Shown here one piece after another: positions 43,635-46,100 of a DNA stretch of 64,000 nt. How positions within the stretch are numbered: position 1 is the stretch's first letter; the number at the start of each line of letters is the position of its first letter. Location of the stretch: assembly GCA_965216935.1 (NCBI GenBank), contig OZ244217.1:1018316-1082315 (forward strand), in the 5' to 3' direction. Source of the stretch: Acidobacteriota bacterium (GTDB taxonomy: Bacteria > Acidobacteriota > UBA890). Made by a program: the position numbers and the translations under genes. The notes below the pieces were generated by a model. It made no database searches. It was given only the letters and a program-made list of their open reading frames with translations, and was not told where the DNA came from.

Positions 43635-46100
43635 ATGGGCCGAATGCGGAATCGGGTCCTCTTCTCCCTCGCCATCGCGCTGTGCTTCTGCTGGAGTGGT
43701 GCCGCTGGCGCCCAGGAACAGCTGCCGGCCGGCGACCTCCCAGTGGTGACCATCGGCATACTGCTCGACGGGCCATGGGTGCGCAACGACGAGATCAGCG
43801 GCATCGTCCAGAGCGAAGTCCGCAGCCTGATCCGGCTGGACTACGACGTCCGTTTCCCGGACGACAAGCGGGTGGAGTCCGACTGGACCGTCGAGGGTGT
43901 GCGCCGCGATCTGGATCGCCTGCTTGCCGACCCTGAAATCGACATCGTCTACACCATGGGCGTGGTGGCCTCGAACGAGGCGATCCTGCGAACCACGTTG
44001 CCGAAGCCGGTCATCGCTCCGTTCGTGATCGACTACCAGTTCCAGGGGGCGCCGACCTTGCTGGCGGCCACGGACAGGCTGGTGAGCGGCGTCGAGAATC
44101 TCAGCTACTTGACGACGCCGTGGGAGGCCAGCCGCGACCTCGAGGAGCTCTACCGAATCGTCCCCTTCGAGAAGGTGGCCGTATTCGTCGACGATCGCTT
44201 GCTCAGCGCGTCCGGCGCCATCGTGGACAACATCGCCCGCACGGCCGAGGAGTACGACGTCGGCTTCCAGGTGATTCCGGTGCGCGACCGGGCGCAACCG
44301 GCACTGGACGCCATCGACCCGGACGTCGACGCGGTGATGGTCAGCGCCCTGCTGAACATGTCCGAGGACGAGAATGCCCGGCTGGTGGAGGGCATCAACG
44401 CCCGCGGCCTGCCGAGCATGGCATTGTTCGGCCGTCAGCAGGTTGCCGAGGGTCTCTTGCTGGGCGTAGCCCCGGACACGAACTTCGCCCGGGTCGGCCG
44501 CAGGGTGGCGATCCACACGCAGGCGATCCTGATGGGCGAGCCCGCTGCGGAGCTTCCGATCCAGGTGGGGCGGCCGCGCGAGCTGGTGATCAACATGGAG
44601 ACGGCTCGACGGATCGGTTTCTCGCCGACCTGGGACGTGCTCACCGAAGCGGAGCTGCTCAACCAGCAGGACATGTCGGCGCCCCTGCTGACCCTCACCG
44701 AAGTCATCGGCCAGGCGATCGCGGCCAACATCGACTATCTCGTGACGGCCCGGCAGGTGGCCATCGAGCAACAGGTTCTGCGTCAGGCGACCGCGCCGCT
44801 GCTCCCTTCCATCGATGCCGGGCTGGGCGCCGTCTCGATCGACCCCACAAGGGCGGAGCAGAGCTTCGGGCAGCAGGCACAGAACTCGTTGCGTGGCCTG
44901 CTGGTCCTGAACCAGCTGGTGTACTCGGATGCGGCCTGGACCGGAAAGGAAACCCAGGAAAAGGCGCTGGAGGTTGCCGAACTCGACCGCGAGGCGCTGC
45001 GGCTCGACGTCATCCGCGACGTCTCGGTTGCGTACATGAACGTGCTCATCGCCGCCACCCTGGAGCAGATCCAGCAGCGCAACGTCGATCTCTCGCGTAC
45101 GAATCTGGACCTCGCCGTGGCGCGCGAGTCGGTCGGCTCCGCCAGCCGCGCCGAGGTGTTCCGCTGGCAGAGCGAGATCGCCACCGACCGCAGCGCGGTT
45201 ATCGAGGCCGTGGTCCGGCGGAACCTTGCCGAGATCGAGCTCAATCGTATTCGCAATCGGCCGCTCGAGGATCCGTTTCGCACCGTAACGGACATCGAGG
45301 GCTCGGAGTTCCGCCAGCCGATGGAGGACCTGGTCCCGTTCATCGGCGACCCTGATTCGTTCGATATCTTCCGTGCTTTCATGGTGCAGGAAGGGCTCCG
45401 GAATGCGCCGGAGTTGCGCGCTATCGATACCGGGATCGAAGCGCAGCTCCGCATCTTGACGAACACCAGACGGAACTTCTGGATCCCGGACGTCGGCTTT
45501 CAGGCGCAGGTCGACTACTTGTTTGCCGATGGCGGCGCCGGCGATGCCGACGACGCCGGGGGGGGCGCCGCTGGCGGCGACATCCCGGTCCTGTTCTCGC
45601 CGCCCAAGACCACCTGGAGCTTCGGCGTCGACGCTGCCTACTCGGTGTATCGCGGCAACGCCCGCTACGCCGAACGCCAGCGGGCGCAGGAAGAGCTTGC
45701 CCTGTTGCGCCTGCAGCGCCGTTCGGTGGCGCAGCGGGTCGAGCAGCGGGTGCGCACCGACCTTCACCGGTTGGTGGGATCGTACGCGCAGATCGACCTG
45801 GCCGAAGAGGCGGCCGACGCCGCCCTGCGCAACCTGGAGCTGGTGCAGGAAAGCTATTCCCAAGGAGTGGTGAACATCGTCGAGCTGATCGACGCGCAGA
45901 ACGCCGCGCTGACCGGAGCCCTGGCACGAGCGTCGGCTGTCTACGAGTTTCTGATCAATCTCACCAACGCCGGGCGCTCGATCGCCAATTTCGACTTCGT
46001 CAATCCGGCCGACCCGGCCGCGCGACAGACGTGGTTGCAGAGGGCGCGGGATTTCTTCGAAGCGGCGCGACGACCCGGAGGCGGCGATGAAGCGGCGTGA
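43635..46100 (+). CDS. TolC-family outer membrane efflux protein fused to an N-terminal PF04392-like (ABC-transporter substrate-binding-like) periplasmic domain
   Basis: An ATG at 43635 gives the signal MGRMRNRVLFSLAIALCFCWSGAAGAQE. Residues about 30-330 resemble PF04392, including the family-typical ending RELVINMETARRIGFSPTWDVLTEAELL. The C-terminal about 480 aa are TolC-like (two repeats with coiled-coil plus beta segments, LINLTNA...). The upstream part of the 43197 ORF is rejected. Confidence 0.75.
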   Translation: MGRMRNRVLFSLAIALCFCWSGAAGAQEQLPAGDLPVVTIGILLDGPWVRNDEISGIVQSEVRSLIRLDYDVRFPDDKRVESDWTVEGVRRDLDRLLADPEIDIVYTMGVVASNEAILRTTLPKPVIAPFVIDYQFQGAPTLLAATDRLVSGVENLSYLTTPWEASRDLEELYRIVPFEKVAVFVDDRLLSASGAIVDNIARTAEEYDVGFQVIPVRDRAQPALDAIDPDVDAVMVSALLNMSEDENARLVEGINARGLPSMALFGRQQVAEGLLLGVAPDTNFARVGRRVAIHTQAILMGEPAAELPIQVGRPRELVINMETARRIGFSPTWDVLTEAELLNQQDMSAPLLTLTEVIGQAIAANIDYLVTARQVAIEQQVLRQATAPLLPSIDAGLGAVSIDPTRAEQSFGQQAQNSLRGLLVLNQLVYSDAAWTGKETQEKALEVAELDREALRLDVIRDVSVAYMNVLIAATLEQIQQRNVDLSRTNLDLAVARESVGSASRAEVFRWQSEIATDRSAVIEAVVRRNLAEIELNRIRNRPLEDPFRTVTDIEGSEFRQPMEDLVPFIGDPDSFDIFRAFMVQEGLRNAPELRAIDTGIEAQLRILTNTRRNFWIPDVGFQAQVDYLFADGGAGDADDAGGGAAGGDIPVLFSPPKTTWSFGVDAAYSVYRGNARYAERQRAQEELALLRLQRRSVAQRVEQRVRTDLHRLVGSYAQIDLAEEAADAALRNLELVQESYSQGVVNIVELIDAQNAALTGALARASAVYEFLINLTNAGRSIANFDFVNPADPAARQTWLQRARDFFEAARRPGGGDEAA

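Follow-up and report, generated by a model that had tools for sequence, protein, structure and literature searches.

A PF04392-type binding-protein domain fused to the TolC-type duct of an RND efflux operon

Ducts of the TolC family are generally treated as passive channels that lack ligand-binding domains and are opened only by periplasmic adaptors. In known TolC structures, helix H1 lies at the equatorial belt, and the adaptor proteins dock at the periplasmic tip. The MexJK and TriABC operons of Pseudomonas aeruginosa have no duct gene of their own and borrow OpmH or OprM, OpmH being the TolC-type partner of both systems. Binding-protein folds recruited as fixed domains of larger proteins are found in MltF, whose N-terminal module is a binding-protein-like regulatory module, and in the GABA-B, NMDA, and taste-receptor modules, but these belong to other binding-protein families, none sits on an outer-membrane efflux duct, and their likeness to the protein described here is an analogy only. 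Accessory proteins of the YbjP type were recognised on the duct only in 2025-2026. In the E. coli YbjP-TolC complex (PDB 9TG4, 9V52, 9QGY; eLife 2026, PMC13082787), a globular accessory protein binds the outer surface of the duct with 3:3 stoichiometry, between TolC's equatorial domain and the membrane, and YbjP is dispensable for efflux under laboratory conditions (PMC13082787). The equatorial domain has been proposed to contact peptidoglycan (PMC13082787, citing Shi et al., 2019). OprM-type ducts run a lipidated N-terminal strand in the same equatorial and periplasmic region.

The locus described here lies in a 64,000-nucleotide stretch of an Acidobacteriota genome (contig OZ244217.1; hereafter the window, in whose numbering all positions are given). 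Like TolC-type outer membrane factors (OMFs; E. coli TolC, PDB 1EK9), its OMF has two OEP repeats and the duct fold, lacks a lipid anchor at the N-terminus, and is encoded in an RND operon, but it differs from them in ~310 extra residues ahead of H1, a predicted C-terminal helix (residues 794-812), and a score below the cut-off for TIGR01844. Whereas YbjP is a separate small lipoprotein of unrelated fold that acts in trans, the additional domain here is covalently fused and carries no lipid anchor. MexJK and TriABC are the nearest described relatives of the other two operon products, but in this locus the operon begins with a modified duct gene of its own. Our literature search found no description of a PF04392-TolC fusion, and the architecture is apparently undescribed so far, maybe because all 68 loci among the matches listed in our genome scan come from metagenome-assembled genomes.

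The fused gene and its operon

The OMF gene is contained in a mechanically called open reading frame on the forward strand (43197..46100, stop codon at 46098-46100). Translation from the ATG at 43635 gives a product of 821 residues, and a 100%-identical database protein of 818 residues (P0025) begins three codons later, at 43644, so the start is one of these two codons. Read by eye, the translation opens with the signal-peptide-like stretch MGRMRNRVLFSLAIALCFCWSGAAGA, followed by QEQ; this putative signal peptide (residues 1-27, 43635..43715, forward strand, if the first ATG is used) ends in an SPase-I-like cleavage site between AGA and QEQ and has no lipobox. Across the family, just 2 of 115 members show a lipobox-like motif. 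The closest named homolog, also from Acidobacteriota, is 72% identical. Rfam and tRNA scans over the window gave no match.

Residues 352-821 (44688..46100, forward strand) correspond to a TolC-type OMF. The Pfam OEP family PF02321 gave two matching stretches (E=1.5e-35; 123 bits, cut-off 22), as the preliminary description of this DNA had anticipated, and the AF2 secondary structure contains H1, H2, four beta-strands, the long helices H3/H4 and H7/H8, and the C-terminal helix. The full-length AF2 model, a monomer (pLDDT 91.8, pTM 0.82), had TolC, OprM, and CusC as its best PDB matches in Foldseek (E 1e-18 to 1e-13), the TolC matches having E values of 1.8e-18 to 1e-16 and TMt of 0.74-0.81. TIGR01844 was the top NCBIfam match yet remained below its cut-off (81.7 vs 225.15 bits), and TIGR01845 NodT scored 45.4 bits against a cut-off of 210.05; judged by these profile scores, the OMF is a divergent branch that is nearer to the TolC type. 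The protein contains a complete, non-lipidated TolC-type duct.

The genes for a periplasmic adaptor (MFP) and an RND inner-membrane permease follow directly downstream, which bears out the proposal that the OMF gene heads an OMF-MFP-RND operon. The MFP (46174..47301, forward strand) probably starts at the ATG at 46174 (MRTSRSRQW...AAGFGAAC), although its frame is open from 46087, and matches TIGR01730 RND_mfp with E=1e-57; its nearest solved relatives are TriA-TriB (6vej), 4l8j, and MexJ, with bit scores of 100 for TriAB and 90.9 for MexJ compared with 48 for AcrA. The permease (47320..50430, forward strand; PF00873, E=4e-161) is of the MexK/TriC type, scoring 620 bits with MexK and 562 with TriC, compared with 230 for MdtB and ~180 for AcrB. 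The likeness to MexK/TriC and MexJ/TriAB denotes the closest proteins by score, not orthology by tree. The layout of the three genes suggests co-transcription. A 30-nt tandem repeat of ~4 copies (46059..46177, forward strand; TRF) spans the OMF stop codon and the ribosome-binding site and start of the MFP gene; every copy contains GGAGG, a spacer, and ATG, and the repeat unit gave three matches where 0 were expected by chance. The neighbouring genes in the window encode an amidohydrolase, a dUTPase, a MacB/FtsX permease, and a TPR protein.

Identity and spread of the N-terminal domain

Between the signal peptide and the duct, residues ~35-345 (43737..44669, forward strand) form a two-lobed periplasmic binding-protein (Venus-flytrap) domain that is a divergent relative of PF04392/ABC_sub_bind. 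On this sequence alone, the strict Pfam check does not bear out the preliminary assignment to PF04392, since neither the whole protein (E=0.12, 12 bits) nor the N-domain by itself (E=0.024, 14.3 bits) reaches the gathering threshold of 25.9 bits. Although below threshold, the match runs collinearly with the final part of the family model: residues 221-339 align with profile positions 175-289 of 293. When 37 diverse orthologous N-domains were compared with Pfam, PF04392 was the sole family matched, with E<=1e-3 in 26 of them, a best value of 6.4e-14, and 27.2 bits for the ortholog P0228. A profile built from the 37 N-domains matched the solved PF04392 proteins 3lkv (E=2.6e-9), 3lft (3.7e-6), and 6hni (2e-3) over profile positions 63-309 of 321; these are VC_1101 of Vibrio cholerae (3LKV, bound to L-Phe), a Streptococcus pneumoniae protein of the SP1069/TrpX type (3LFT, L-Trp), and CD0873 of Clostridioides difficile (6HNI, L-Tyr). 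The family-ending signature quoted in the preliminary description is found verbatim in a stand-alone PF04392 protein (P0016). A fold search with the N-domain of the AF2 model returned a two-lobed type-I binding-protein fold whose nearest neighbours are the PF04392 structures, the model being nearer to closed liganded forms (TM 0.72-0.77) than to the open form of CD0873 (0.64), and the matches also included the GABA-B and NMDA amino-terminal domains. The wider evidence for PF04392 from orthologs and profile is decisive, and the N-domain is a divergent PF04392-type two-lobed binding-protein domain. The proposed order of signal peptide, binding-protein domain, and two-repeat TolC is supported by the translation, Pfam, and fold matches, and the profile and fold evidence excludes the alternative that the N-terminal region is a mere extended equatorial domain.

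The fusion is widespread. Clusters at 50% identity that reach E<=1e-30 number 1,104, and more than 110 full-length homologs of ~800 residues were recovered; the family alignment holds ~250 sequences for ~800 columns. In a scan of GTDB species representatives, which gave 68 loci from at least 12 phyla among the matches listed, the domain and TolC were encoded in one frame in 60, and of the remaining listed loci five are cut by contig ends and two split by frameshifts. The lineages include Acidobacteriota, Gemmatimonadota, Desulfobacterota-type bacteria, Latescibacterota, Ignavibacteria, Nitrospirota, Gammaproteobacteria, and others. Several apparent stand-alone N-domains were rejected: P0001, P0003, P0006, and P0146 end at frameshifts or contig ends, masked N's begin just past the TolC H1 motif in the second L061 copy, and in L016 the sequence passes abruptly from the end of the domain to the C-terminal portion of the RND gene, indicating a deletion or an assembly chimera. 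One family member (P0192) carries a bacterial SH3 domain ahead of the binding-protein domain. The sub-threshold PF04392 score of this protein alone and the many truncated or frameshifted database fragments could be taken to mean that the gene is a frameshift or assembly join of two genes, or that its N-region is not a binding-protein domain, but the one-frame loci together with the profile and fold evidence refute this reading, whose probability we consider negligible. The fusion is an old, stable architecture and a large family rather than a peculiarity of one genome.

Among the 50 listed loci with enough room, MFP and RND genes lay downstream on the same strand in 38. Clustering of the open reading frames in the 68 loci among the matches listed revealed no conserved gene besides OMF, MFP, and RND, the next cluster being present in at most 7 loci, and no conserved regulator or ABC permease/ATPase gene was found near the fusion in these loci. 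In six loci, including L004, L022, and L037, neither an MFP nor an RND match accompanies the fused duct within the locus, and in L061 an MFP fragment is the sole MFP/RND match.

Mounting of the domain on the duct

The N-domain is joined to TolC helix H1 via a short, highly conserved segment of fixed length. This junction (44583..44693, forward strand) combines the final strand and helices of the binding-protein domain (LVINMETARRIGFSPTWDVLTEAELL) with the ~10 residues that connect to H1. No other segment of the protein is as conserved: residues 317-346 score 0.67, the TolC core 0.59. Each alignment position from 326 to 380 has an occupancy of at least 0.99, and the spacing from A339 to N365 stays within 27-29 residues in every one of the 115 sequences. 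The pTM of 0.82 for the full-length model would probably be out of reach if both domains were placed independently. Taken together, the occupancy, the fixed spacing, the conservation of the junction, and the pTM suggest that the mounting is rigid. A domain attached to H1 would be expected at the YbjP site on the duct.

This geometry makes it unlikely that the domain anchors the OMF to the inner-membrane components, as had been suggested from the sequence, because the domain is ~10 residues from H1, and H1 sits at the equatorial belt, roughly half the length of the duct away from the tip where adaptors dock. In a weaker form of the same idea, the domain would reach down the duct and contact the hairpins of the MexJ-like adaptor, thereby stabilising pump assembly. 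OMF, MFP, and RND are co-inherited as a unit in most of the loci listed, and a binding-protein domain measures ~6 nm, enough to span part of the lower duct. However, the MFP can be aligned with TriA/TriB and MexJ over the full length and has no extra domain, solved pumps show tip-to-tip docking of adaptor and TolC, and the six loci without an MFP or RND match, as well as L061, retain the fused duct, so that we consider such a docking role improbable.

Cleft conservation and possible roles of the domain

Within the fusion family, pairs of sequences share on average 42.6% identity in the N-domain and 45.9% in the TolC part, and the two co-diverge (r=0.78); judged from these values, purifying selection is about as strong on the N-domain as on the duct. 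Strong conservation is seen in the Venus-flytrap fold, the hinge motifs VE.G and NL.Y, and the lobe-A cleft loops, which comprise DGPW after strand 1, G..AS after strand 3, and KPVIAP...D...Q after strand 4. These cleft-facing loops and the polar residues D45, K124, N155, Y158, R289, R290, N320, and T323 are 92-100% conserved; conserved residues were placed relative to the cleft by secondary-structure logic, and two specificity positions were mapped. The cleft loops of lobe B are, in contrast, poorly conserved (scores 0.1-0.4), and both they and the loop equivalent to that bearing Tyr-262, the specificity residue of VC_1101 (PMC6816091), vary across the family and carry indels, the latter loop scoring in the same range. 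The motifs common to 3lkv, 3lft, and 6hni (TP.AQ, TDP, NVTG.SD, Y(N/S)..E.N, and DN) give way to G.(l)AS, APFVxD, NLxY, and variable sequence, equivalence being judged from HMMER alignments. Together, the replaced motifs and the variable lobe-B loops argue against a single conserved small ligand held in the canonical binding mode, whereas the two-lobed fold, the hinge motifs, and the conserved lobe-A loops are compatible with sensing or gating, as had been suggested from the sequence.

These features bear on whether the domain could still work as a solute-binding protein that binds aromatic amino acids in the manner of TrpX, CD0873, and VC_1101, either serving an ABC importer or passing substrates from the periplasm to the pump. 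Its nearest relatives by sequence and fold bind Trp, Tyr, and Phe (PMC6816091, PMC10443332), but the motifs shared by the three solved proteins are replaced, genes for an ABC permease or ATPase are not conserved in the 68 loci among the matches listed, and a domain fixed rigidly to an outer-membrane duct would be unable to shuttle to an inner-membrane importer. We also know of no lateral entry of substrates into TolC. We therefore regard such a role as highly improbable, an uptake receptor being disfavoured by the lack of any conserved neighbour beyond MFP and RND, the replaced motifs, and the variability of the lobe-B and specificity loops.

The reading we favour, with a probability of about 0.4, is that the N-domain has ceased to be a transport receptor and now serves the duct as an integral accessory or positioning module. 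Because H1 belongs to the equatorial domain in solved TolC structures, three copies of the N-domain would form a rigid periplasmic collar around the midsection of the duct trimer, beneath the outer membrane. Such a collar would stabilise the trimer or set its orientation within the envelope, perhaps through contacts with peptidoglycan or adjacent protomers, and the conserved lobe-A loops and junction would then be protein-contact surfaces and not a pocket for an aromatic amino acid. Bacterial SH3 domains are usually associated with cell-wall binding, but the family member that carries one is a single protein. YbjP offers a precedent for an accessory protein at this site, but since it is dispensable for efflux in the laboratory, the analogy with it predicts no strong phenotype for the module. 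Against this reading, a purely structural collar need not retain two lobes, and the conserved fold, hinge, and lobe-A loops are also what a functional ligand site would resemble.

The same observations leave some room for a module that binds a periplasmic small molecule other than an aromatic amino acid and modulates opening, assembly, or stability of the duct via its rigid link to H1 and the equatorial belt, which we consider possible but doubtful. The two-lobe fold and hinge are fully kept, the model lies closer to closed liganded forms, the lobe-A cleft loops and the eight polar residues are nearly invariant, selection on the domain is as strong as on the duct, and in other proteins, among them the fold matches GABA-B and NMDA, channels and receptors are under the control of Venus-flytrap domains. 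On the other hand, variation and indels affect both the cleft loops of lobe B and the equivalent of the specificity loop, the solute-binding loop motifs are replaced, and neither a regulator nor a partner gene is conserved nearby in the 68 loci among the matches listed; to our knowledge, there is also no mechanism by which the equatorial belt could gate the distant periplasmic tip. That the domain is a working receptor in the fuller sense, in which a periplasmic metabolite, an envelope fragment (e.g., a muropeptide), or a pump substrate bound at the collar controls opening, assembly, or anchoring of the pump, seems rather unlikely.

The fused members have been mostly hidden under the name 'TolC family protein', a precomputed PF04392 match being attached to only ~1/4 of the full-length ones, which amounts to a gap in annotation. 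With a full binding-protein domain hard-wired to the equatorial region, the family offers a natural experiment on what attaches at the equator of these ducts and why. If the receptor reading were true, it would be the first ligand-gated or ligand-sensing TolC, and one that is widespread in uncultured phyla.

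The fused duct and its pump

The fused gene occupies 43635..46100 (+), within a mechanical ORF opening at 43197, and the G+C content of the window is a uniform 66-70%. With the ATG at 43635 as its start, the protein has 821 residues, the first of which read by eye as a typical secretion signal (MGRMRNRVLFSLAIALCFCWSGAAGA|QEQ); a database protein of 818 aa identical to it (P0025) begins at the next ATG, 43644. As the preliminary description had proposed, the last 470 residues form an ordinary outer membrane factor (OMF), with PF02321 in two stretches (E=1.5e-35). TIGR01844, the TolC subfamily, was the best NCBIfam match, under its cut-off, and E. 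coli TolC was matched in phmmer. An AF2 model of the full-length protein, made with 115 homologs as input, is confident (pLDDT 91.8, pTM 0.82); it contains H1 (residues 354-364) and H2, four strands, the long helices and a C-terminal helix, and its top PDB matches are TolC, OprM, CusC and their relatives. Since only 2 of 115 family members carry a lipobox-like motif, ducts of the fusion family are non-lipidated and of TolC type. The window's duct is a divergent TolC-type OMF.

The gene order OMF-MFP-RND suggested earlier was also borne out, with a periplasmic adaptor (MFP) gene immediately 3' of the OMF gene (46174..47301 (+), alternative starts from 46087; TIGR01730, E=1e-57), followed by an RND permease gene (47320..50430 (+); PF00873, E=4e-161). 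The permease scored 620 bits against MexK and 562 against TriC, compared with 230 against MdtB and ∼180 against AcrB, and the best matches of the adaptor were TriA-TriB, 4l8j (from Bacteroides) and MexJ, with which it aligns end to end without an extra domain. The pump is therefore similar to MexJK and TriABC, with a modified duct of its own.

The OMF/MFP boundary is covered by a tandem repeat (46059..46177) of a 30-nt unit, GAAGCGGCGCGACGACCCGGAGGCGGTGAT, in ∼4.1 copies with 81% matching, which extends over both the OMF stop codon (46098-46100) and the MFP start. Every copy includes GGAGG, a spacer of 5-6 nt and ATG, so that the MFP ribosome-binding site and start codon are repeated. The MFP reading frame consequently has three extra in-frame upstream starts, with units of KRRD(D)PEAV(V/M), ahead of the likely true start at 46174 (MRTSRSRQW...), and the first copy also codes for the OMF C-terminus. 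Such a repeat may be prone to slippage and may influence translational coupling.

Other neighbors in the window look unrelated to the fusion. Upstream and divergent from the OMF gene is an amidohydrolase-family gene (43776..42214 (-); PF01979, E=2.9e-22), whose product starts with a long N-terminal leader that is rich in Ala and Pro and resembles a secretion signal. This gene is not a conserved neighbor of the fusion elsewhere, with one weak match (L023) among the at least 68 loci listed. A TPR protein is encoded further upstream. Downstream of the three pump genes are a dUTPase and an 825-aa permease (51049..53526 (-)) in which the MacB-like periplasmic core and the FtsX domain each occur in two stretches, a duplicated MacB/FtsX-type architecture that is common in Acidobacteriota, in keeping with an acidobacterial origin of the window.

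Identity of the N-terminal domain

The preliminary description assigned the region between signal peptide and duct (the N-domain, residues ∼35-345) to PF04392. When the window protein was searched alone, the PF04392 match reached only 12-14 bits (E=0.12 or 0.024), below the gathering score of 25.9, and would not be accepted on that sequence by itself. However, among 37 mutually diverse orthologous N-domains, 26 matched PF04392 at E≤1e-3 (best 6.4e-14), and no other Pfam family was matched by any of the 37. A profile of these sequences matched exactly the solved PF04392 proteins (3lkv, 2.6e-9; 3lft, 3.7e-6; 6hni, 2e-3), in alignments spanning most of the N-domain. The N-domain modeled alone by AF2 (pLDDT 91.9, pTM 0.87) had solved PF04392 proteins as its top five Foldseek matches (E ∼1e-15), with other binding proteins trailing by seven orders of magnitude. 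Together, the ortholog, profile and fold matches settle the identity of the domain, and exclude the extended TolC equatorial domain that had been named as the alternative.

Spread of the fusion

A first search with the isolated N-domain returned just 16 proteins, many of them broken; an alignment query then returned more than 110 full-length homologs of ∼800 aa. The survey of spread suggested earlier was carried out as a profile search run exhaustively over 1.84 billion cluster representatives, which gave 1,104 matches at E≤1e-30, mostly of 780-830 aa, and as a search of one genome per GTDB species, which gave at least 68 loci. All loci listed are metagenome-assembled genomes and, according to record titles, they include Acidobacteriota (Thermoanaerobaculia, Vicinamibacteria, Terriglobia), Gemmatimonadota, Thermodesulfobacteriota and other 'delta' lineages, Latescibacterota, Calditrichia, Ignavibacteria/Bacteroidota, Nitrospirales, Zixibacteria, Bradymonadales and Gammaproteobacteria. 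The N-domain and TolC share a single frame in 60 of the 68 loci among the matches listed; of the remainder, five are cut at contig ends, in two the gene is broken by frameshifts, and one (L016) represents a deletion or chimera. MFP and RND genes follow on the same strand in 38 of the 50 listed loci with room for them, and are nearby but rearranged in five. That the fusion, or the identity of its N-domain, is an artefact is essentially excluded, with a negligible probability.

Apparent solo copies of the N-domain proved to be truncations, frameshifts or masked sequence. In L016, a Chromatiales genome (JAHELT010000011.1, 9572..11607), the frame leaves the end of the binding-protein domain, continues for ∼20 unrelated codons to a stop, and is followed by the C-terminal part of an RND gene, reflecting either the loss of TolC, the MFP gene and most of the RND gene in a deletion of ∼5-6 kb, or a chimeric assembly. 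Ignavibacterium sp. bin94 (L061, CP070637.1) has a second, more divergent fused copy (528..1970 (-)) ∼8 kb from the first, which enters a masked run of N's just past the TolC H1 motif; this genome therefore holds two fusion paralogs.

Some homologs are extended at the N-terminus. The metagenomic protein P0192 (881 aa) consists of a signal peptide, a bacterial SH3 domain (PF08239, 28.1 bits), a Pro-rich linker, the binding-protein domain and TolC. In P0228 (977 aa), ∼150 residues of low-complexity Pro/Thr/Ala-rich sequence separate signal peptide and domain, and P0227 (1268 aa) has ∼460 additional residues with weak beta-propeller-like matches, which may reflect a wrong start call.

Junction, pocket and possible role

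Across 115 full-length sequences, conservation of the N-domain comes close to that of the duct: mean pairwise identity was 42.6% for the N-domain and 45.9% for TolC, and the divergence of the two parts was correlated (r=0.78). The N-domain ends at ...LVINMETARRIGFSPTWDVLTEAELL, TolC H1 starts ∼10 residues on, and there is no flexible linker between them. Alignment occupancy is at least 0.99 at each junction position, N365 follows invariant A339 at a distance of 27-29 residues in 115/115 sequences, and residues 317-346 are the best-conserved stretch of the protein (0.67, compared with 0.59 for the TolC core). A pTM of 0.82 for the whole protein would be out of reach with random placement of a domain that accounts for 39% of the chain; we therefore infer that AF2 predicts a fixed arrangement of N-domain and TolC. 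Because H1 belongs to the equatorial domain in solved TolC structures (PMC13082787), the three N-domains of the trimer should encircle the duct at mid-length as a collar.

Motifs common to 3lkv, 3lft and 6hni, located in post-strand loops of both lobes ((A/S)TP.AQ, (T/S)DP, NV(T/S)G.SD, Y(N/S)..E.N and DN), are replaced in HMMER alignments of the fusion family by family-specific residues or variable sequence, and the motifs that are kept (VE.G..A, IL.G, (V/I)N) belong to the hinge or core. Within this family, lobe-A loops after strands 1, 3 and 4 are highly conserved (D45, 100%; G46, 98%; G109, 99%; K124/P125, 97-98%), as is the first crossover (S151, G152, N155 and Y158, each at least 97%). 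Lobe-B loops 186-195, 217-222, 237-243 and 277-285 score only 0.1-0.4, except for G194, A238, L239 and M242 (0.6-0.7). Loop 277-285, gapped at 278-285 in some members, holds the equivalent of Tyr-262, the specificity residue of VC_1101 (PMC6816091). The N-domain is a distant PF04392 relative that fails the functional hallmarks of that family. The three solved relatives are ABC importer proteins that bind L-Phe, L-Trp and L-Tyr (PMC6816091, PMC10443332, PMC9382623); there are no ABC genes conserved nearby in the loci listed, and the N-domain is therefore not a receptor for amino-acid uptake. That it works as an amino-acid binding protein is very improbable and essentially excluded.

We favor, with a probability of roughly 0.4, the idea that the N-domain is a built-in accessory collar, once a binding protein and now anchored at the equatorial belt, which would stabilize or position the duct within the envelope, with the conserved lobe-A loops and the junction acting as protein contacts. 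In E. coli, YbjP binds TolC in trans in the equatorial region; the N-terminal strand of lipidated ducts is located there too, and the region has been suggested to face peptidoglycan (PMC13082787). Hints in favor of the collar come from the rigid junction, the variable cleft loops of lobe B, the SH3 domain of P0192, and the absence of partner genes, since no further conserved neighbor was found among the at least 68 loci listed. A complete two-lobed fold with a conserved hinge is, on the other hand, not obviously required for a purely structural role, and the main rival, a ligand-responsive module that would make this a sensing or gated duct, is a tentative but somewhat less probable reading. 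Docking of the adaptor by the N-domain is disfavored and improbable; the geometry argues against it, as do six listed loci in which the fused duct is present and a matching MFP or RND gene is absent from the fetched locus. Functions of another kind, such as a role in assembly or as a chaperone, are unlikely, if slightly less so than docking.

Annotation pipelines have in part caught the fusion. IMG labels some members 'outer membrane protein TolC/ABC-type uncharacterized transport system substrate-binding protein', NCBI labels among the homologs listed are 'TolC family protein' or, once, 'ABC transporter substrate binding protein', and a precomputed PF04392 match is present on only 33 of 120 homologs among the matches listed. 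A full-text literature search found no published account of the fusion; its components belong to known families, and their combination appears to be undescribed. The fusion is a surprising one for efflux specialists, and is timely in the wake of YbjP.
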